The notes under the pieces: generated by a model
What the model was told of the DNA's origin: nothing
The model's input: the letters and a program-made list of their open reading frames with translations, nothing else
Database searches by the model: none
NCBI GenBank assembly: GCA_965230895.1
Contig: OZ246394.1
Coordinates: 569,316-633,315 of the forward strand
DNA from: an uncultured Gammaproteobacteria bacterium
Lineage (GTDB): Bacteria > Patescibacteriota > Microgenomatia > Levybacterales > UBA12049
DNA length: 64,000 nucleotides
Reading direction: 5' to 3'
Shown: positions 52,955 to 61,073 of the stretch, piece after piece
Layout of the letters: the number at the start of each line of letters is the position of its first letter
How positions within the stretch are numbered: position 1 is the stretch's first letter
Position numbers and translations under genes: made by a program

Positions 52955-53995
52955 ATGCTTGATCTCAACAACAAAGAGCACATCCAGGAAATCGATAAGT
53001 TAGATGCCCTCGGCACCACTGAAAATCTTCTTAAGCAATGCGAAGCCGCATGGAATGAATCAACTGCTCTCTCTGTGCCTAAGATAGAAAATGTAACAAA
53101 TATTGTCTTTTGCGGCATGGGCGCTTCCATGTATGGTGGACTTGTCTTAAAATCATTACTCGGTCGAAATGTACCATATCCAGTTGAAATCGTTAGTGAC
53201 TACTATTTGCCTGATTATGTTGGAAAGAATACACTTGTCGTATTAACAAGTTACTCAGGAACAACTGAAGAAGTGCTTTCTTGTGCTGAGGACGCAAAGT
53301 CGAAAGAAGCACAAATGATTGTGGTAACAAAAGGAGGAACGCTTGCTGAATTTGCTCGAGATAACAATGTTCCTGCGTATATATTTGATCCCAAGCTTAA
53401 CCCAAATAATGTTCCTCGGTTGGGCACTGGCTATACAATTCTTGGGATGATTGGTCTGTTAAATAAAACCGGCGTTATAGATATTGAGGAGAAAGAGATC
53501 TCAGATGCACTTGTCCGTATGTATGATAAATTTGATGAGATCAAGCAGCAAGCTTTTGAGGACCACAAGATATTTATCAATAAAATCCCCATTATAGTTG
53601 CTGCAGAACAGCTTACGGGAAATGCTTTAATATTGCGAAATCAACTCAATGAAACCAGCAAGGCATTCTCTGCTTTTTATCTCCTCCCTGATCTAAATCA
53701 CCATCTTATGGAAGGATTGCAATTCCCTGCTGAAGCTCCCCTCCATTTCCTTGCTCTTAGTTCTCCAAATTATTCGGACAAGATTAAAAAGCGCCTAACA
53801 CTAACCGAAGAAGTTATTATACAAAATAAATATCCCGCTCATGAGTTTACGACTAGTGGTCAAACAAGTTATGATGATGTATTAGAGGTGCTATTTTATG
53901 GAAGCTTCCTAACTGTATATCTCGGCTTGGCTTATGAACAGAATCCTGGGACTAATCCTTGGGTAGATTGGTTTAAGAAGGAATTAAATGCTTAA
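52955..53995 (+). CDS. Bifunctional phosphoglucose/phosphomannose isomerase (SIS domain, archaeal type)
   Basis: SIS loop FCGMGASMYGGLVLKS and a second SIS region; 346 aa. Confidence 0.8.
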   Translation: MLDLNNKEHIQEIDKLDALGTTENLLKQCEAAWNESTALSVPKIENVTNIVFCGMGASMYGGLVLKSLLGRNVPYPVEIVSDYYLPDYVGKNTLVVLTSYSGTTEEVLSCAEDAKSKEAQMIVVTKGGTLAEFARDNNVPAYIFDPKLNPNNVPRLGTGYTILGMIGLLNKTGVIDIEEKEISDALVRMYDKFDEIKQQAFEDHKIFINKIPIIVAAEQLTGNALILRNQLNETSKAFSAFYLLPDLNHHLMEGLQFPAEAPLHFLALSSPNYSDKIKKRLTLTEEVIIQNKYPAHEFTTSGQTSYDDVLEVLFYGSFLTVYLGLAYEQNPGTNPWVDWFKKELNA

Positions 53996-54366
53996 GCAAC
54001 AATTGACTTCACTTTATCGACAAGCTGTGCAGGCGTAAAAGAACTCTTCAACATATAGCCATCAGTAAATCCCAAAACATGATCAATGTCTTTTGTCTCA
54101 TCACTATTCGTTAGAAAAAGAATATGCTTAGCAGGCTTCTTCAAGAATGTTTTAACCTGATCCATAATCTGGACACCGGTCATAATGGGTAGAAGTACGT
54201 CTAAAAGAATTAAATCCCATCCTCCAATTTTGATTTTATCCAATGCTTCTTTCCCATCAGCTGCTGTAGTTACATCATATCCAGCACTTGAAAGCGTTTC
54301 GTTATAAATATCACGAAGAAACATATCATCTTCTACTAGGAGTATTTTTATTTTGTTTTCCATCAC
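53992..54366 (-). CDS. Stand-alone response-regulator receiver domain (CheY-like)
   Basis: KILLVEDD (acidic pocket), phospho-acceptor D in LILLDVLLP, conserved T and K later; 124 aa; no output domain. Confidence 0.8.
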   Translation of the reverse strand: MMENKIKILLVEDDMFLRDIYNETLSSAGYDVTTAADGKEALDKIKIGGWDLILLDVLLPIMTGVQIMDQVKTFLKKPAKHILFLTNSDETKDIDHVLGFTDGYMLKSSFTPAQLVDKVKSIVA

Positions 54367-54391
54367 TCTATTCTATCAATAAATCCTTTAA

Positions 54392-54423
54392 AACAAAAGA
54401 AAACCACCAGTTGGTGGTTTTTA
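54392..54423 (-). terminator. Rho-independent terminator downstream of pilin gene 1
   Basis: On the minus strand, aaaaaccaccaactggtggtttt is followed by a T-rich run. Confidence 0.55.
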
Positions 54424-54442
54424 AAACATATGCATTCCCCTA

Positions 54443-54925
54443 TTATCGAGTAACTTGGATTGGTGGAGTATATGCACTTGGTGCTGAAACTGTTATTCTA
54501 TTATTTGTATCTCTTGTAATTGTGTAACCTGTGTTCCATGTTCCTGCGCATTCACCAGCTTCAACTCCTGCCTGATCATTAAGTGTTGGATCCATTGGAA
54601 GTGCTGGCATATAATTTGGTACTAACTGAGCACAAAGAGCACCTAAATCGGCCCCACTTTGCAATGGGGTTGGGTCATTTACATCCAAAGCCTGAACAAG
54701 CGGCGGTAATTGCCCAGTATTTGATGCTGTATATTGTCCGATTGCATTAAGAATCTGAGTAACATCACTTCGACGCTTTGTATCATTTGCTTGGCCAAAT
54801 TGTCGTGCAGGGTTAATAGCGATAAGTGTGATTGCTAAAAGGATAGCGAGGATACCGATTACAACGAGTAATTCGATGAGTGTGAAACCTTTTTGGTCTT
54901 TGTTAAATATTTGTCGGACAGTCAT
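54443..54925 (-). CDS. Type IV major pilin, paralog 1
   Basis: Class III leader and cleavage site NKDQKG|FTLIELLVVIGILAIL with Glu5; about 160 aa; C-terminal Cys pair. Confidence 0.85.
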   Translation of the reverse strand: MTVRQIFNKDQKGFTLIELLVVIGILAILLAITLIAINPARQFGQANDTKRRSDVTQILNAIGQYTASNTGQLPPLVQALDVNDPTPLQSGADLGALCAQLVPNYMPALPMDPTLNDQAGVEAGECAGTWNTGYTITRDTNNRITVSAPSAYTPPIQVTR

Positions 54926-54970
54926 GTTTTGTTTTGATCAAGTTATCTTGATCTGTATCTATTATTGTCA
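54926..54970 (-). promoter_or_regulatory. Conserved pilin 5' leader with perfect 18-nt palindrome gatcaagttatcttgatc (54936..54953)
   Basis: A nearly identical 45-nt stretch precedes both pilin start codons; the second copy is at 56561..56605. Confidence 0.5.
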
Positions 54971-55076
54971 GAGTCGGTATATCCTGTCAATATGTCTAAA
55001 TAGTCAAAAATATATTTAAATAGATCAGTTTACTTTTCAAGAAATTATTTGAATCTAAAAAAGATAATGATGTATT

Positions 55077-55406
55077 TTGATCATCTTGACACAGACTCAA
55101 CCTTTACTTCATTATAGATATATAATGTTGAAACCAACGAAACATCATGAACCACTAAGTAGCGCAAAAGCAATTATTGCAATACTGGTTTTAGGTATCG
55201 CTTTTGTACTCTTTTATAAGTTCATAACAAATCAGGAATTCTTCTTGGATGATCCAGAAGCTCTTCGAAACTACGTCATCTTTACTATTACAGTAAGTGG
55301 GTTCTTAATTGGGCTTCTTTACCTCACAAGCCAGACAAAGCACAAAGCGAAAACAAAATCCAAGTCAATTTCAAAAGCTAAGCCTACTAAAAAGAAGAAG
55401 AAATAA
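55077..55406 (+). CDS. Small membrane protein with Lys-rich C-terminus
   Basis: Two hydrophobic helices and a KKKKK tail; the start is uncertain (ATG 55077 or 55125). Confidence 0.3.
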   Translation: MIILTQTQPLLHYRYIMLKPTKHHEPLSSAKAIIAILVLGIAFVLFYKFITNQEFFLDDPEALRNYVIFTITVSGFLIGLLYLTSQTKHKAKTKSKSISKAKPTKKKKK

Positions 55407-55421
55407 CTTTTAATTTTCTTT

Positions 55422-56042
55422 CTACAATTCCCTTGCAATTACTCTTGTTGGTGCACCATCTGCTTTTAGTTTTATCGGTAGCGCAATAACTTCAAACGCA
55501 TCCACTTCTAATAGTTGTCCCACGTTTGTTAAATTCTCAAGAATAAATATCTCGTTTGTTAAAAGTATCTTATGAACAATCCAAGGTTGATCAGCGTCAG
55601 GACCGGACATATCCATTCCCACTCCACTTATGTTATGTTCCACCATCATTCTTGCAAAGTCTTCAGCAATCACAGGAGCATTACTGAAGTAATCTTCCTG
55701 CCCATACTTTTCACCAAAACCCGTATACAAGAGAACTATCGAACCTTCTTTTAATGCAATTCCATCAAGAACAGATCCATCAATAATATCCTTTCCCTGT
55801 ACATCGAGTACTATTCCATTTCCAATAAACTTCTCTACAGGCAATGCGTCAATTGTTTTGCCTCCAGCAATCATATGCAATGGAGCATCCATGTGTGTCC
55901 CGACATGCATAACAGTCGTAAGCTTATGATCGTTAAAACTATTTTCTTTAATGCTTGCGACCTGTTCTATTTGGGGCTTCGGATCACCAGGAAAGACTGG
56001 TATATCATCAGAGAAAGTATGAGATAAATCAAATAATTTCAT
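55422..56042 (-). CDS. Cyclase-family protein (kynurenine formamidase-like metal-dependent hydrolase)
   Basis: Motif HVGTHMDAPLHM (HxGTHxDxPxH) typical of the cyclase/arylformamidase family. Confidence 0.75.
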   Translation of the reverse strand: MKLFDLSHTFSDDIPVFPGDPKPQIEQVASIKENSFNDHKLTTVMHVGTHMDAPLHMIAGGKTIDALPVEKFIGNGIVLDVQGKDIIDGSVLDGIALKEGSIVLLYTGFGEKYGQEDYFSNAPVIAEDFARMMVEHNISGVGMDMSGPDADQPWIVHKILLTNEIFILENLTNVGQLLEVDAFEVIALPIKLKADGAPTRVIAREL

Positions 56043-56083
56043 AAAGAAGAGTATACAAAAGAATTGTAAAGATTATTGAAGAA

Positions 56084-56560
56084 TTAGCGAGTTACTTGGA
56101 TTGGAGGAGTGTATGCACTTGGCGCTGATACTGTTATTCTATTATTTGCATCTTTTGCAACTGTATATCCAGTGTCCCATGTGCCCGCGCAGTCACCAGC
56201 TTCAACTCCAGCTTGATCGTTAAGAGTTGGATCCATTGGAAGTGCTGGCATATAATTTGGAACTAATTGTCCACAGAGGGATGGGAAATTTGTACTATTG
56301 AGTGCGGCTGAACCACTTGCAAGAGCTTGAACATTTGGAGGCAATTGGCCTGTATTAGATGCTGTGTATTGTCCGATTGCGTTAAGAATCTGTGTTACAT
56401 CACTTCGACGCTTTGTATCGTTTGCTTGTCCGAATTGTCGTGCTGGATTAATTGCGATAAGAGTGATAGCTAAAAGAATAGCGAGGATACCAATTACAAC
56501 GAGTAATTCTATGAGTGTGAAACCTTTTTGATTTTTATTAAATACTTCTCGGACAGTCAT
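56084..56560 (-). CDS. Type IV major pilin, paralog 2
   Basis: MTVREVFNKNQKG|FTLIELLVVIGIL. N- and C-terminal thirds are near-identical to paralog 1. The ORF-track start at 56614 reads through the conserved untranslated leader. Confidence 0.85.
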   Translation of the reverse strand: MTVREVFNKNQKGFTLIELLVVIGILAILLAITLIAINPARQFGQANDTKRRSDVTQILNAIGQYTASNTGQLPPNVQALASGSAALNSTNFPSLCGQLVPNYMPALPMDPTLNDQAGVEAGDCAGTWDTGYTVAKDANNRITVSAPSAYTPPIQVTR

Positions 56561-56660
56561 ATTGTTTTTGATCAAGTTATCTTGATCTGTATCCATTATT
56601 GTCATAATGCTCAACTGTTGTCAATAGAGCAAAAATTGAAAAAAAATCGAAAATTCAAGG

Positions 56661-57800
56661 CTATTTACCTAGGATAATCGTAATATCATTATCGCCTTCT
56701 TGTCTTTCTTCTACAGTGATATTTGGTCTTATTTTTTCAACTTCCTCAAGAATTGCGGTGCGGGTAGATTGAGTTACAGTCCCAGCAAAAAAAATAACTG
56801 ATTCTGAATTTCTAGTACTACTCCTTGTTTGCGTAGTTATGTCTTTGAATTTATATGTTTCAAGAGCGGTCCGTAAAGGCGCAGAACTAGAAGCAGAAGA
56901 ACTGACAATTTGAACGGTAAGATTTTCAAACTGAACTGGTTCAACCGGTGGAACTGTCGGCGGTACAGTTGCTACAGGGGCAGTCTGAGGCATAACAGTT
57001 GGTTGAACCGTAGCTTGGGGCGCTGGTGGTTGCATGCTTTGCATGTAAACGATAACCAGAACAACCAGTAAAATTACTAATATTCCAATCATTCCTATTA
57101 ATCGTTTCTTATTTGTCTTTGGTGGTTCTTTCCCTTGCGCTAATTCTTCCTGAACTTCGTCAACAGATTCTTCCTCTTCTTTTTTTGCCGGAGTAAATGC
57201 AGCTTGGGTCTTAATATCATATTGCTTCAAACTTGGAGTTTTCTGAATTGTCGTATTGATGAGATTCATGTCCATCGGTTTTGCACTCAATTCCCCACCC
57301 AATACCATTCCCGGAAAAACAGAGGCAATAGTAAAGCCAAGCTTTTCAAATGCTCGTTCAATGGTTGCATAGAGATCCTGATTGACTGCACAAACACGTA
57401 TACCATTTTTTAGTGGGAATGTTTTGCTCACCACATTTTCATAAGGAACATGTTCGATAAACATATCAATCTGAGGTTTTAAATCAGCAATTGTTGTTTT
57501 AGGTGTGGCAGTTGGTACAGGCTGTCCAGATTTTACTGGCTGCTGAGCTGATTGCGGAGGAATGATAAAGTCTTTCACGAAATAAGCATTATCTGCGAGT
57601 ACGATAATGAAGTTACTTGGAGGGATTTTGTTATTTGTTACTAAAATCTTTATTTGCTCTTCAAGCTTGTCATCATTTAATACATCCAAGTCCCGCACAA
57701 TATCTGGAGGAAATCGATATTCCACAAGTGATTTTAAATAAGGTGAATATAATTGAAATTTATCTTTTTGGAGATAGATTACTCCTGTTCTTACTGCCAT
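56661..57800 (-). CDS. Bitopic pilus-assembly-like protein (cytoplasmic N-domain, TM, Pro/Thr/Val-rich periplasmic region); PilM/PilN/PilO-like role is inferred
   Basis: TM helix LIGMIGILVILLVVLVIVYM near residue 230; position inside the pilin operon. Confidence 0.3.
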   Translation of the reverse strand: MAVRTGVIYLQKDKFQLYSPYLKSLVEYRFPPDIVRDLDVLNDDKLEEQIKILVTNNKIPPSNFIIVLADNAYFVKDFIIPPQSAQQPVKSGQPVPTATPKTTIADLKPQIDMFIEHVPYENVVSKTFPLKNGIRVCAVNQDLYATIERAFEKLGFTIASVFPGMVLGGELSAKPMDMNLINTTIQKTPSLKQYDIKTQAAFTPAKKEEEESVDEVQEELAQGKEPPKTNKKRLIGMIGILVILLVVLVIVYMQSMQPPAPQATVQPTVMPQTAPVATVPPTVPPVEPVQFENLTVQIVSSSASSSAPLRTALETYKFKDITTQTRSSTRNSESVIFFAGTVTQSTRTAILEEVEKIRPNITVEERQEGDNDITIILGK

Positions 57801-57801
57801 A

Positions 57802-58224
57802 TTAGAAAGCCTCTTTCTCTGACGTAACCGTCAGTTGATTATTTATATACGTTGCTCGGACCTCAACAGTTCTTTTGAAATTACCGACTGTTCCAGTTGA
57901 TGTAATAATATACGGACTCCCCGATGTGCCACTCCCTCCTACGGTTATAACTGCCTGACCTTGACCGATTGTCAAAGTTTCACCCGTATACGTTGTGGGT
58001 GTACGAAGTAGTCGCAATAATCCGTTCTCTGCCCCACTCTGCGCAACTTGATACGCAACTTCTCCCTGTTGTTGTCTTGTTCCACTATTTGAATTTATCA
58101 AGATCATAACAATTGCCGCAGACGTAATCGTTAGTCCAATAATCATAAAGAACAATAGCGTTATAAGCGCTTGCCCTCGTTGATATGAGAGCGATAATTT
58201 CTTAATTACTTTACCACTTCTCAT
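57802..58224 (-). CDS. Minor pilin / pseudopilin-like protein (non-canonical +1/+5 residues)
   Basis: QRG|QALITLLFFMIIGLTI prepilin-like N-terminus lacking Glu5; 140 aa. Confidence 0.5.
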   Translation of the reverse strand: MRSGKVIKKLSLSYQRGQALITLLFFMIIGLTITSAAIVMILINSNSGTRQQQGEVAYQVAQSGAENGLLRLLRTPTTYTGETLTIGQGQAVITVGGSGTSGSPYIITSTGTVGNFKRTVEVRATYINNQLTVTSEKEAF

Positions 58225-58775
58225 TGTCTTGCTAAAGTTGTCTGGAACGACCTTGATTCTGCACCCGACGGCTGCTGAATCCTACTCACCACAGTGAAAT
58301 TCACCCGAATTGTATCATTACTATCTCCTGCTCCAATCCGTTGGAAAGATAAACCTGTAAGGTATGAGTTAGCTCCGTTTAATTTATTTACTTCTCCGGT
58401 TGATCCATTTGTGAGGAGAAGATTTCCCCCACTATCAAGGCTATAGGTATAGTTTATAGAATTTACCCGTATTTGCAAAGTAGACGAAGTCACTCCTGGA
58501 GATGCTGGAGTAGTTATACGATCACCTGATGGAGAAGCACTTATGGATTTCATATCATAAAACAACTTGCCCATGATATATCTTCCATCCTGATCAACAA
58601 CGGATGTTGATTCTGATTCCAACTGAACTTCAACAATCTGTCCAAACATCGTACTCATAATACCAACGAGTATTGAAAGAATTCCTACATACAAAACTAA
58701 TTCGATAAGTGTAAATCCTTTTTGCCTTTTTTGAGAGGATACCTTGGCAGCAAAAAACTTCTGAAAAAATTTCAT
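58221..58775 (-). CDS. Minor pilin / pseudopilin
   Basis: KRQKG|FTLIELVLYVGILSILVG with Glu5; 184 aa. Confidence 0.7.
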   Translation of the reverse strand: MKFFQKFFAAKVSSQKRQKGFTLIELVLYVGILSILVGIMSTMFGQIVEVQLESESTSVVDQDGRYIMGKLFYDMKSISASPSGDRITTPASPGVTSSTLQIRVNSINYTYSLDSGGNLLLTNGSTGEVNKLNGANSYLTGLSFQRIGAGDSNDTIRVNFTVVSRIQQPSGAESRSFQTTLARQ

Positions 58776-58829: not shown

Positions 58830-61073
58830 TTACGAACCACCATTGGATCCACCTGAACCGGACCCGCCGTTTTGATCTCCTTGAAGTTGATTAATCAAGC
58901 TTGTAATATCAGTGTACAATAAATTATATCCTTCAACTGTTATACTCTTCCCTTTTTGTTTATTGAGTTCCACAAGCATAGCTTTCAAAGTTATAATTGC
59001 GAGCTTATTTCCCAATGGTTGTCTGTTGATTAATGTAGCTCTTTCTGCAACTTCAGCTTGCACTTTGAGTGCTGTATAAAATATAACGTTTTTAATTTGC
59101 TTCTGCTGGTAGAGTTTCTTGATGTCATCTTTTAGAATATTAAAGGTAATTTCACGGATAGGTTCTGTTTTAATATTATTTATATTTTCTTTATCATATG
59201 AAAGTTTATATACAGCCTCTGTTTCAGGAGTTAGATTACCCGTATAGGAAGCGGTTTTCATTTCCCCTTCCTCAGTAAATATATACTCATCCAATTGATA
59301 ATCTGGATCGGTTGCGGAGTAAAGTTCTACTCTATAATTGCTTGATTCTGGCTTTGCAAAATAGAATACCTTTACAGCTGATGTATTTGTATTAAATGGT
59401 TCTTCTACAAGTTGTGCAGGACTGTACTCCAAATAACTTTCCCCATACGTAGCTCCATTCTCATCACGAACAGTTATATAAACATCTTTATCAGCGACAT
59501 AAACCATGTAAGATAGATCAGTATGTGAAGGAATATATCTTCTAACCGATACTGCTTGGTTATTATATGAGGCAAGGGTTGTTCTATTAAATAGCGGATC
59601 ATTTATTTCAAAAGTATTGCCAGTTTTACCTTTCGCCACAACGAAATGCATACCAGGAGCATTTACTTGTAAAATATTAGGAATACCTTGATTTAAATCA
59701 TTTGTTAAAGTCGTTGTATTGAAGTACATATCAGGATTATACTCGAGAGCATCATATTGAAAGTTTGGGTTCTGCGACTTTGCTTTTTTAGCTAGATTCC
59801 CCACAGCGGACCATATAACTCCTAAATTACGATTATAGCCCTTATTTTCTTTCAACCATTTGTTTACGGTTCCTGGATTAACATCACTTCCGTCTGGCAT
59901 TTTGTTAATCCCATGATATCTTAAAATCATTGCAATTGAACTTGTAGCGCATCCACACTGCGTCATAGTCCTTCCACAGACAAACTGCCCAGCATTAGCG
60001 TGATCAAATTCTTCTGCCTCCCATGCAGGATTATTGTCATTATATGGAGCAACTCCTTGCTTAAATAAAGGTACATTTAAACTTGCTCCACCTATTGGAG
60101 GGGTTGGGATCATAGAAGGGAGAGGATTTGTAATTGTTTTTGGGTCAAAAGTACTAATTTTATCAAATTGTGCAAACCAAATATTACCGTCTGGGCCAGA
60201 AGTTATGTCATACACTGCACCTGAAGTATCGTATTCAATTACGTCTCCATTTTGTTGAAATTTTCCAATTATTTTTGTATTAGATCGTGTATACCATAGA
60301 GCATCATCTGATCCTAAAGTGAGTTGATCGACGTTTGGTTTAAATATTGGGTATTCAGTTATATCTCCGTGGTAAGTTATATTAGCGATTTTATTTCCAC
60401 CGTATTCTGTAAACCAAATATTATTGTTTGGGCCAAGAGCTATTCCTGTTGGGGAGCTTGAAAGAGTAGGTATTGTAAATTCAGTAATAACCCCTGTTGG
60501 AGTTATTCTTCCTATCTGATTGTCATTTGACTCAGTGAACCAAATATTGCCATCAGAACCACTAACAAGACGGACCAGTCCGATAAATGATGACGCTGGC
60601 AACTCAAAGTACATAACTGAACCACTACTGGATATTCTACCAATCTTATTTGTATTCCCAGAAGAAAACCACATATTATTATCTGGACCTAAAATAATAT
60701 CATCAGGAGCAAAATTATTATCAAGTTGATATTCAGTTATTGAACCATTTATTGTAGACCTTGCTACTTTATGAGAATTAAACTCAGTAAACCAGACATT
60801 ACCATTATTATCGCTAACAATCGAATTCGGCCTACTATATGGAGATGGTATTGTGTACTCTGTCACTATACCGGATATAGTAACTTTTCCTATCTTATTT
60901 GTTTCTATTGCAGTATACCAAATATTTCCGTCAGGACCTGATGTAATACTGGACACATTACTTCCATAAGGTAGTTGATAATCCTTGATACTAGAAGCCT
61001 CTGCAGTAGAACTAGCAAATAAAAAAAGTATAAACAAAGAAGTCACTAGACTAAAACGAAAAAAATTAATCAT
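58830..61073 (-). CDS. Secreted multidomain protein: 7-bladed Vgb-lyase-like beta-propeller, papain-like peptidase_C39-like domain and C-terminal beta/helical region
   Basis: Sec signal. Seven repeats of the form GPDGNIWFTE...NKIGRIT. Then QFVCGRTMTQCGCATSSIAM (Cys), GMHFVVAKG (His) and INDP (Asp/Asn). Gly/Ser tail. Confidence 0.6.
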   Translation of the reverse strand: MINFFRFSLVTSLFILFLFASSTAEASSIKDYQLPYGSNVSSITSGPDGNIWYTAIETNKIGKVTISGIVTEYTIPSPYSRPNSIVSDNNGNVWFTEFNSHKVARSTINGSITEYQLDNNFAPDDIILGPDNNMWFSSGNTNKIGRISSSGSVMYFELPASSFIGLVRLVSGSDGNIWFTESNDNQIGRITPTGVITEFTIPTLSSSPTGIALGPNNNIWFTEYGGNKIANITYHGDITEYPIFKPNVDQLTLGSDDALWYTRSNTKIIGKFQQNGDVIEYDTSGAVYDITSGPDGNIWFAQFDKISTFDPKTITNPLPSMIPTPPIGGASLNVPLFKQGVAPYNDNNPAWEAEEFDHANAGQFVCGRTMTQCGCATSSIAMILRYHGINKMPDGSDVNPGTVNKWLKENKGYNRNLGVIWSAVGNLAKKAKSQNPNFQYDALEYNPDMYFNTTTLTNDLNQGIPNILQVNAPGMHFVVAKGKTGNTFEINDPLFNRTTLASYNNQAVSVRRYIPSHTDLSYMVYVADKDVYITVRDENGATYGESYLEYSPAQLVEEPFNTNTSAVKVFYFAKPESSNYRVELYSATDPDYQLDEYIFTEEGEMKTASYTGNLTPETEAVYKLSYDKENINNIKTEPIREITFNILKDDIKKLYQQKQIKNVIFYTALKVQAEVAERATLINRQPLGNKLAIITLKAMLVELNKQKGKSITVEGYNLLYTDITSLINQLQGDQNGGSGSGGSNGGS

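Follow-up and report, generated by a model that had tools for sequence, protein, structure and literature searches.

The locus considered here raises two questions. It lies within a window of 64,000 nt (the whole stretch of contig OZ246394.1 that was analysed) and contains two closely related pilin genes, each preceded by the same short inverted repeat just upstream of its start codon, so that one may ask what this repeat does, and also how the two proteins come to be so alike at their ends and so unlike in the middle. To our knowledge, almost nothing is known about the expression of pilus genes in Patescibacteria, and the locus offers a testable picture of it, comprising a promoter close to consensus, a hairpin predicted to be 5'-terminal and a linker that is rich in A and lacks a Shine-Dalgarno (SD) motif, all set in a leaderless-looking genome. 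Should the hairpin control stability or translation, it would provide a simple handle on expression where genetic tools are only beginning to appear. Type IV pili are considered central to host attachment by ultrasmall Patescibacteria (PMC11623550).

The answer that we favour, albeit with only slightly more confidence than doubt, is that these are two separately promoted pilin copies, that the repeat acts as a stem-loop at the 5' end of the mRNA rather than as an operator or as a mask over the start codon, and that the copies have been shaped by purifying selection together with gene conversion. We infer from the sequence the position of the transcription start, the functional form of the repeat (RNA and not DNA), and a stabilising or translational role for it; protection or tuning of the mRNA is the most likely role.

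The two pilin genes and their surroundings

Paralog 1 (54443..54925, minus strand) encodes 160 residues and paralog 2 (56084..56560, minus strand) 158 residues from the ATG at 56560. Both match the Pfam N_methyl family (PF07963; E=2.6e-10 and E=8.8e-11 respectively), above cutoff in each case, and the TIGR02532 score is 33.8 bits (cutoff 16.3). Both proteins carry the prepilin leader MTVRQIFNKDQKG followed by FTLIELLVV, and both show the features of a class III signal peptide, i.e. a leader ending in Gly, then F/M, a hydrophobic helix, and Glu at +5. More than 5,600 homologues of paralog 1 were found, and its AlphaFold model (pLDDT 82.4) contains a helix (residues 16-68) and three strands (131-138, 144-148 and 156-159). 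The top match to this model in a Foldseek search of the PDB was the pseudopilin PulG, and this was weak (E 0.21, prob 0.90, TM 0.41/0.58), while a PDB search using the pilin sequence matched solved pilins in the N-terminal helix only. Judging from promoter strength, size and family abundance, these are likely to be major pilins.

An initial sequence-only reading had described the genes as tandem pilin paralogs that vary in a central segment, near-identical over the first ~75 and last ~60 residues and differing by about five codons in length. Much of this was borne out: the proteins are 84% identical, with three mismatches in residues 1-75, six in the last 59 and a divergent block at approximately residues 76-101. 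The difference in length is, however, two codons, and the genes are not in tandem, being separated by a gene of the cyclase/arylformamidase family (55422..56042, minus strand; Pfam Cyclase E=1.8e-31) and by a small membrane-protein ORF taken from the ORF list (55125..55406, plus strand), which is divergent from paralog 1. The position of the cyclase-family gene is the same in the related loci L081 and L082, and a small opposite-strand ORF occupies the equivalent place in L081, L082 and L084. The same reading was right to treat the listed ORF start of paralog 2 at 56614 as an artefact: the TTG at 56614, from which an ORF of 176 aa would run, falls within the spacer separating the -35 and -10 boxes, and it is the MTVR start that is conserved in the family.

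On its 3' side, paralog 1 is followed by an intrinsic terminator (54390..54421, minus strand; 9-bp stem and T tract). Upstream of the pilin pair there are minor-pilin-like genes (58221..58775, N_methyl), and the window ORFs that were scanned yielded neither an assembly ATPase nor a platform protein nor a peptidase. In the Saccharibacteria strain TM7x, two pilus types have been described (PMC11623550).

Promoters and leader hairpins

Upstream of paralog 1 lie the boxes TTGACA (54990..54985) and AATAAT (54966..54961), and upstream of paralog 2 the same two boxes (56624..56619 and 56600..56595), on the minus strand and 18 nt apart in both cases, so that each gene has an 11/12 match to consensus and each copy would be transcribed from its own near-consensus promoter of sigma-70 type. 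A gap of 34-35 nt separates the -10 box and the ATG, and the stem of the hairpin starts at the 8th nucleotide after the -10 box (i.e. with 7 nt between) in both leaders.

A likely transcription start can be assigned by reference to other genes of the window. In 30 of the 58 window ORFs a TAnnnT box ends 5-9 nt short of the start codon, the gaps peaking sharply at 6 nt, while an SD-like motif is present in 9/58; the relatives have the same SD-poor, leaderless-looking upstream pattern. The host genome would therefore appear to be mostly SD-free and largely leaderless, and it probably belongs to a Patescibacteria-type bacterium. Since the gap in these leaderless-looking genes peaks at 6 nt, +1 is likely to be the 7th nucleotide after the -10 box, and this calibration gives predicted starts at ~54954 for paralog 1 and ~56588 for paralog 2, each of which is an A one base before the stem. 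Leaderless, SD-independent initiation is known from Actinobacteria and Deinococcus, and GeneMarkS-2 recognises a leaderless class (PMC6028130; PMC3160421). The window genome resembles this class in that about half of its genes have a -10 box at a distance of 5-9 nt from the start codon, whereas the pilins are exceptional in that their gap of 34-35 nt holds a hairpin and an A-rich linker.

The hairpin of paralog 1 (54936..54953, minus strand) has arms GAUCAAG and CUUGAUC forming 7 bp around the 4-nt loop AUAA, with a folding energy of -8.0 kcal/mol (z -7.7) that was equalled by none of 200 shuffles. That of paralog 2 (56570..56587, minus strand) is identical, again with a dG of -8.0 kcal/mol (z -6.5). 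On the gene strand the repeat reads GATCAAGATAACTTGATC, and it occurs exactly at these two places with no third copy in the window; the number of matches expected by chance, allowing up to three mismatches, is 0.11. It had been called a perfect palindrome, and the 7-bp inverted repeat is indeed present at both positions, but the centre of four nucleotides is not symmetric. The two leaders show 4 mismatches in the 41 columns that run from the -10 box up to the ATG, in keeping with the description of a conserved leader before both genes.

Between stem and ATG lies an A-rich linker of 9-10 nt, AAAACAAAAC in paralog 1 (54926..54935, minus strand), where it is unpaired and has no SD motif, and AAAAACAAU in paralog 2 (56561..56569, minus strand). 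In the fold of paralog 1 the AUG is unpaired. The suggestion that the hairpin occludes the start can thus be set aside, because the AUG lies 9-10 nt past the stem within an unpaired A-rich stretch. No SD motif was found upstream of either pilin ATG, as had been noted earlier. As a separate observation, the scarcity of SD-like motifs across the window ORFs implies that this absence is a trait of the genome and is not peculiar to the pilins.

Several other readings of the repeat were considered and rejected. A plus-strand terminator-like match at 54936..54953 is the leader hairpin itself in mirror image, and a terminator reading fails also in that nothing converges on this site and the gene strand continues with A's and not U's. 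Regulation by Dam at GATC, or avoidance of restriction, does not fit the relatives, which carry GATT...AATC instead of GATC...GATC; within the window GATC is neither depleted nor enriched (277 observed; base composition predicts 222 and a Markov model 300). A stem of 7 bp is too short for an RNase III site. Scanning the window with the Rfam 15 covariance models gave three tRNAs alone at the gathering score, and a search of 54380..56720 at E up to 1 gave two matches at chance level, both elsewhere than the leader hairpins.

The hairpin in the wider pilin family and its possible role

The family survey comprised four syntenic loci and 80 metagenome loci, all picked by protein and not by leader, and the query for the metagenome scan was the pilin alignment rebuilt without the N-terminal helix. 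A further scan of a genome collection used the full pilin alignment, with its generic prepilin N-terminus patterns; among the matches listed, most were distant pilins (at most 53% identity) from many phyla, and the better full-length ones were mostly from Patescibacteria MAGs.

There are 55 non-redundant promoters in the family, of which 33 have long leaders, and a hairpin folds in 29 of these 33, which agrees with the expectation that the leader should be conserved at orthologous loci. The first paired base falls 6-8 nt after the -10 box in 27 of the 29, and 26 of the 33 long leaders exceed 95% of shuffles in stability, although many of the relatives' stems are short and AT-rich (dG -2 to -7 kcal/mol). 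The remaining family members have no hairpin, ten of them having leaders of 15-27 nt and twelve being near-leaderless. Distant pilins of the family share the leaderless geometry, with a gap from -10 to start of 8-12 nt. Because the short-leader and near-leaderless members do without one, the hairpin is not essential for pilin expression in the family. The leader motif is nearly confined to pilins, with 19 pilin-adjacent sites vs three others in 385 kb.

In 19 leaders the arms can be written GATYA...TRATC, and at one pair within them C-G is found in eight, U-A in ten and C-A in one. The 5' arm is fixed in position and the 3' arm lies 7-11 nt from the ATG, with the sequence of the linker drifting, while the gap between the pentamer arms takes the values 6, 7, 7, 8, 8, 8, 8, 9, 9, 10, 10, 10, 10, 12, 12, 14, 15, 18 and 20 nt. 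Some leaders pair in a shifted register, e.g. those of paralog 1 of L082 and of L106, where the arms are CAGATC/GATCTG, and the loops also vary (AUAA, AUUACA, ACAAG, UAAU and others). In a MAFFT alignment of the leaders 90.6% of cells are paired, as against 15-53% in slid controls, and the covariation score was reached by none of 500 shuffles, although this covariation rests mainly on one pair in sequences that are related, so that few independent events are represented. Pairing is conserved, then, while sequence and loop vary, as one would look for in a 5'-terminal stem-loop. Given the fixed 5' arm, the variable gap, the limited range of distances to the ATG and the exchange of C-G for U-A, an mRNA stem-loop is favoured over a dimeric operator.

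On this basis, the transcript would begin one nucleotide before the 7-bp stem-loop and continue through an unpaired A-rich linker to the AUG, and the stem-loop would protect against 5'-end-dependent decay by shielding the 5' end; together, hairpin and fixed-length linker would make up a compact module through which an abundant structural protein is expressed independently of an SD. Precedents exist: 5' stem-loops are described as stabilising the ompA, papA and aprE mRNAs, and base-paired 5' ends as slowing RNase E, in work cited by the review PMC3997798. The leaders of ompA and papA in E. coli and of aprE in B. subtilis have in common with the pilin leaders a short hairpin at or near the 5' end (here a predicted one) of an mRNA for an abundant envelope or secreted protein, a structure that is conserved rather than its loop sequence, and a start codon left uncovered; papA, like the genes of the window, encodes a pilus subunit. 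The pilin leaders differ in being much shorter (~28 nt), SD-less, found in a largely leaderless host and known by a predicted 5' end, and they share no sequence homology with the other three.

A related possibility, rather less likely, is that the hairpin tunes translation and not stability, either as a docking or standby structure in the position of the SD helix or as a site for an RNA-binding protein or small RNA. It would account for the base of the stem staying 7-11 nt away from the AUG as the linker changes in sequence and the loop in length, for the linker being unpaired and A-rich, and for the need of leadered mRNAs in an SD-less genome to recruit ribosomes by some other means. However, the unconserved loops speak against sequence-specific loop recognition, no known motif such as GGA is present, and the fixed distance to the AUG could stem in part from shared ancestry. 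It should also be remembered that tuning of translation and stabilisation of the mRNA are mutually compatible. A bolder proposal, which we regard as decidedly speculative, would combine the two, making the pilin mini-leader, evolved in a lineage that relies otherwise mainly on leaderless messages and has no SD sites, a distinct module for SD-independent ribosome recruitment and 5' protection, with the hairpin in place of the SD helix, spread among paralogs by gene conversion.

The sequence-only reading had offered both an operator and an mRNA hairpin, and of these the hairpin proves to be the better idea. As an operator the repeat would be a DNA site at +1 to +19 for a dimeric repressor or activator of both pilins, which now seems improbable. 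It does overlap the predicted start site, a classic position for a repressor; the coupled change from C-G to T-A in the arms is equally expected of a symmetric protein site; neither G-U pairs nor folding energies discriminate the strands, the sense being better in energy by more than 1 kcal/mol in nine leaders and the antisense in five, with no consistent asymmetry; and loop and 3' arm are specific to a genome yet common to both its paralogs, a pattern that co-evolution with a factor might produce. Against this, half-sites would have to keep a fixed spacing, and the arm gap in the 19 leaders ranges over 6-20 nt; shifts of register such as those noted above would not be tolerable for a rigid dimer; and the 3' arm keeps its distance to the ATG and not to the 5' arm. 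Nor is there an obvious candidate factor. The neighbouring orphan receiver, to which an operator had tentatively been linked, is a response regulator downstream of paralog 1 (53992..54363, minus strand) whose Response_reg domain spans residues 7-118 of 123, the Pfam scan giving no output or DNA-binding domain for this protein, and no HTH or other DNA-binding protein is found in the conserved neighbourhood. The pairing of pilin and response regulator is itself seen again in relatives.

That the hairpin has no function at all, being a small palindrome inserted into the leader and kept alike through gene conversion with the 5' coding region, is doubtful to a similar degree. Leaders are indeed most similar between paralogs within one genome, and many family members manage with short hairpin-less leaders or near-leaderless promoters, but the structure persists despite divergence of loop, linker and even arm sequence, with compensatory changes in the arms and positions fixed relative to both -10 and ATG. 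In the window the hairpins are identical and the leaders nearly so, as against a dS of ~0.6 at the adjacent N-terminal synonymous sites.

Conserved ends and a variable middle

Returning to the proteins, the central variable block comprises codons 76-101 of paralog 1 (54623..54700, minus strand) and codons 76-99 of paralog 2 (56264..56335, minus strand; '...LNSTNFPSLC' type). It follows the helix in the AlphaFold model, within a predicted surface alpha-beta loop, and is the segment of highest entropy in the family (1.8 bits vs 0.2 in the helix). The block follows orthology: that of paralog 1 differs from paralog 2 at 43/78 nt and from its L081 ortholog, its nearest relative, at 25/78, and that of paralog 2 likewise lies nearest to L081 paralog 2, from which it differs at 19/72 nt. 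These two block types have been retained by orthology over three genomes with dS ~1. A family-wide scheme of two classes, tying the type of central block to the type of promoter, was also considered; it is true in the window, L081 and L082 and fails in distant loci.

The leader and N-terminal DNA behave differently, their nearest match being the paralog in the same genome. Within a genome, leaders differ at 4/41 positions in the window and 4/43 in L082, as compared with 6-11 across genomes, and in L081 the N-terminal DNA of the two paralogs shows 10/225 differences vs at least 28 otherwise (bootstrap 0.999). For the N segment of the window genome the gene-conversion bootstrap is weak (0.64). 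Homogenisation of leader and flanks between paralogs is thus clear in L081 and only suggestive in the window genome. The likeness of the ends would be due both to strong purifying selection, acting on the N-terminal helix and C-terminal sheet, and to occasional gene conversion between paralogs, which would take the leader along; the alpha-beta loop is the variable surface region of the family, retained as two old types.

The sequence-only reading had attributed the central block to diversifying selection or antigenic variation of an exposed loop, and had asked whether dN/dS is elevated there. It is, at 0.17-0.67 compared with 0.01-0.26 in the flanks, but it lies below 1 in all nine computable pairs (11 were compared, with dS saturated in two). 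Ongoing diversifying selection or antigenic variation therefore appears rather unlikely, even though no other part of the family varies as much as this block, which maps to the predicted surface loop and in paralog 1 has evolved faster than in paralog 2 (dN 0.58 vs 0.20, both against L082); the age and orthologous retention of the two block types count against it, and full promoters on both copies argue against a silent-cassette system. Purifying selection with gene conversion in the flanks offers a better explanation of the like ends and unlike middle. That the region is no target of a diversity-generating retroelement (DGR), as was stated at the outset, is confirmed by its 37 mismatches, which span all four bases with no adenine bias (A is the paralog 1 base at ten and the paralog 2 base at 15), the copies moreover being whole genes and not a template/variable repeat pair.

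A comparison with pilE/pilS of Neisseria and other multi-copy pilins is instructive, these having likewise a conserved N-terminal helix, a variable surface loop and signs of recombination through the flanks. In the window, unlike in Neisseria, both copies are complete, each with its 11/12 promoter, leader and start, there are no promoterless silent cassettes, and the central blocks are stable orthologous types rather than fast-shuffled cassettes, followed by a C-terminal part that is conserved.

The pilin genes and their leaders

The two type IV pilin genes lie on the minus strand, paralog 1 at 54443..54925 (160 aa) and paralog 2 at 56084..56560 (158 aa, counted from the ATG at 56560), and the overall observation that they are paired and share a leader repeat is real, subject to minor corrections. 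They are indeed paralogs, but they are not strictly in tandem as had been proposed, since they are separated by a cyclase/arylformamidase-family gene (55422..56042, minus strand) and by a divergent ORF for a small membrane protein (55125..55406, plus strand). Both proteins open with MTVR..KG/FTLIELLVVIGILAILL, the prepilin cleavage/methylation motif, both match Pfam PF07963 (E=2.6e-10 for paralog 1 and 8.8e-11 for paralog 2), and in the pilin profile search the TIGR02532 score exceeds its cutoff. The AlphaFold model of paralog 1 (pLDDT 82.4) has a long helix (residues 16-68) followed by a small sheet; its top PDB fold match, a weak one, is the pseudopilin PulG, while in a PDB sequence search the match to solved pilins is limited to the N-terminal helix. 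The family is very large (5,698 proteins at E <= 1e-3) and, among the matches listed, the better full-length ones in genome collections are mostly from Patescibacteria MAGs. In an alignment of family proteins the last residues, I-x-V-T-R (54446..54475 and 56087..56116, minus strand), never vary, and neither do two cysteines, which in paralog 1 are C98 and C126.

Each gene has a promoter of the form TTGACA-N18-AATAAT (matching the consensus at 11 of 12 positions), the -10 box ending at 54961 for paralog 1 and 56595 for paralog 2, and this is followed by 7 nt (rGATACA), GATCAAG-ATAA-CTTGATC, 10 or 9 A-rich nt and the ATG. The 18-mer is shared by both genes, as the sequence-only reading had it, but rather than a perfect palindrome it is a 7-bp inverted repeat with an asymmetric 4-nt centre; within the 64 kb it is found only at the two pilin leaders, 0.11 chance matches being expected at up to 3 mismatches. 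The ORF start at 56614 was rightly suspected to be an artefact: this TTG falls between the -35 and -10 boxes and is therefore off the predicted transcript, the conserved start being MTVR. Within the -35/-10 spacer, paralog 2 carries a conserved element (TTGACA-ACnGTTGAGyaAGTT..., 56601..56618, minus strand) that is absent from paralog 1 of the window and present in many relatives' promoters (e.g. those of L098, L103, L113, L115 and L124), while a conserved T-rich stretch, TTCGTnTTTTTT...TTTGCTCT, lies upstream of promoters of this type; either may serve as an UP element or as the binding site of a factor.

Both pilins do lack a Shine-Dalgarno sequence, but this is no peculiarity of theirs, as an SD-like motif is present in only 9 of the 58 ORFs in the window. 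In 30 of the 58 a TAnnnT box ends 5-9 nt ahead of the start codon, with a sharp peak at a gap of 6 nt (14 genes, 10 of them matching TATAAT at five or more of six positions). Such box spacing is a signature of leaderless transcription, and this genome looks leaderless-dominant; relatives, including the four syntenic loci L081-L084, show the same low-SD, leaderless-like pattern. Because the genome is otherwise leaderless-like, the two pilin genes, with -10-to-ATG distances of 34-35 nt, are exceptions. If leaderless mRNAs are taken to begin at the A of the ATG, +1 is the seventh nucleotide after the -10 box, and the pilin transcripts are predicted to begin at A 54954 and A 56588, one base ahead of the stem.

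Hairpin in RNA or operator in DNA

Folded as RNA, the repeat gives a hairpin of -8.0 kcal/mol (z = -7.7 and -6.5, no shuffle being equally stable), which no family matched in an Rfam search. Of the syntenic relatives, L081 and L082 share the gene order of the window (pilin 2, cyclase, small ORF, pilin 1, regulator), and L083 and L084 have a single pilin each; 80 metagenome loci were picked by pilin globular-domain sequence, and therefore with no leader bias. The survey rests on 55 non-redundant genes whose promoter could be recognised, and in these the -10-to-ATG distance is 8-12 nt (near-leaderless) in 12, 15-27 nt without a hairpin in 10, and at least 28 nt in 33. The leader does prove to be conserved in other genomes: 29 of the 33 long leaders give a hairpin, its pairing beginning 6-8 nt past the -10 box in 27 of the 29, and 26 of the 33 beat 95% of shuffles in stability, the 5' arm being fixed in the shuffles. 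That arm (A-Y-A-GAT-Y-AA) is kept even in short leaders with no hairpin and therefore looks like an ancestral start-site context, onto which the complementary 3' arm would have been added; the near-leaderless and intermediate groups suggest stepwise leader growth in the window's clade. The distant pilins at 8-12 nt are those of L134, L149, L151, L152, L154, L156, L159-L161 and L163.

A rival reading is that the inverted repeat is a DNA operator for a symmetric protein, perhaps one tied to the neighbouring receiver. Across 19 leaders of the form GATYA...TRATC, a motif nearly confined to pilin leaders (in 385 kb, 19 occurrences adjoin a pilin and 3 do not), the pair that varies reads C-G in 8 leaders and T-A in 10, and is a mismatch in the remaining one. 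When 20 leaders are aligned with MAFFT, pairing in the named helix stands at 90.6%, the covariation score of the helix is matched by none of 500 shuffles, and sliding the helix partner by 1-3 columns reduces pairing to 15-53%; pilin 1 of L082 and the pilin of L106 show a register shift (CAGATC/GATCTG), in which the conserved 5' segment is reused with another 3' arm. A symmetric protein site would likewise account for linked changes in the two arms. However, the gap between the arms runs from 6 to 20 nt in the 19 leaders, a 14-nt range of half-site spacing that a rigid dimer would not tolerate, and the sole regulator in the conserved neighbourhood, the 123-aa response regulator downstream of paralog 1, is receiver-only with no DNA-binding domain, so that the operator is not supported. 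Sense and antisense folding energies of the leaders give no clear strand signal, and the RNA form is favoured but not proven. That the hairpin occludes the start codon was a further proposal, which finds no backing in the predicted fold, where the AUG is unpaired in paralog 1 and, in paralog 2, takes part in no more than a weak secondary helix.

The comparative evidence thus supports a predicted 5'-terminal mRNA hairpin, which would place a stem-loop at the very 5' end of the message for an abundant structural protein. Base-paired 5' ends slow RNase E, and 5' stem-loops stabilise the ompA, papA and Bacillus subtilis aprE mRNAs; the likeness is that of a 5' hairpin on an mRNA and, in the case of papA, of a pilus subunit as well. 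Work on 5' stem-loop mRNA stabilisers is referenced in a review (PMC3997798). We give the reading of the leader as an RNA 5'-hairpin expression module slightly better than an even chance. More speculatively, the hairpin and the A-rich linker, held tightly at 7-11 nt from 3' arm to ATG in the 19 leaders, might act jointly in SD-independent initiation. The 5' hairpin would be a new example, in an under-studied lineage, of a known kind of element, its less ordinary aspect being a hairpin leader within an otherwise leaderless-looking genome.

Divergence and proposed conversion of the coding sequences

Identity between the two proteins is 84%, and their alignment has a single 2-residue gap overall, in place of the roughly 5-codon length difference first described. 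The family's most variable segment is the central block (codons ~76-101, a predicted alpha-beta loop), with an entropy of 1.8 bits compared with 0.2 for the helix. Segment-by-segment Nei-Gojobori estimates for 11 pairs bear out the expectation of elevated dN/dS in the block: between the two window genes dN/dS is 0.03 for codons 1-75 (dS 0.61), about 0.18 for the block (dN 0.66, dS saturated) and 0.09 for codons 102-160 (dS 0.51), and in the 9 computable pairs the block value, 0.17-0.67, is above the flanks and never exceeds 1. The block differs at 25/78 nt between paralog 1 of the window and that of L081, at 19/72 between the respective paralogs 2, and at 43/78 between the two window genes; it follows orthology, and the two block types therefore predate the split of the genomes (dS ~1). 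Antigenic variation or diversifying selection, as first suggested, finds no support in these values.

For the N-terminal DNA and the leader, on the other hand, the nearest sequence tends to be that of the other paralog in the genome. The N segments of the L081 pair differ at 10/225 nt, while every other pair differs at 28 or more (bootstrap 0.999); the two leaders of the window differ at 4/41 columns and those of L082 at 4/43, compared with 6-11 when leaders of different genomes are set side by side; for the N segment of the window the figures are 26/225 against 29-43, with a weak bootstrap of 0.64. We read this as purifying selection with occasional gene conversion of flanks and leader, the loop region being kept distinct. 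At the more distant locus L112 (pilins at 2745 and 4745; cf. L127 and L155), where one contig carries both copies, the hairpin leader is confined to the copy that lacks the paralog-2-type upstream element, a pattern that fits the idea of gene conversion having brought the hairpin to paralog 2 in the window's clade. A DGR, already discounted from the sequence, is rejected because the mismatches have no adenine bias and both copies have full promoters, as is, on the latter ground, a pilE/pilS-type cassette system.

Neighbouring genes

A strong intrinsic terminator lies downstream of paralog 1. Paralog 2 has none, and the cyclase-family gene begins 41 nt downstream of it (56043..56083, minus strand), with a TATACT box 7 nt ahead of its ATG; it may share a transcript with paralog 2, be expressed from a leaderless promoter of its own, or both. 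The divergent membrane ORF has its own promoter, TTGACA-18-CATTAT (55086..55127, plus strand), with the ATG 9 nt past the -10 box and a start-site context, AGATATA, resembling the AGATACA of the pilin promoters; a similar ORF adjoins pilin 1 in L081, L082 and L084. Directly upstream of minor-pilin-like genes is a gene (58830..61073, minus strand) for a 747-aa protein whose Vgb-lyase-like beta-propeller is joined to a C39-like peptidase domain and a tail rich in Gly and Ser; in L081 and L082 the same position is taken by a shorter gene (~590 aa) with a weak Peptidase_C39_2 match.
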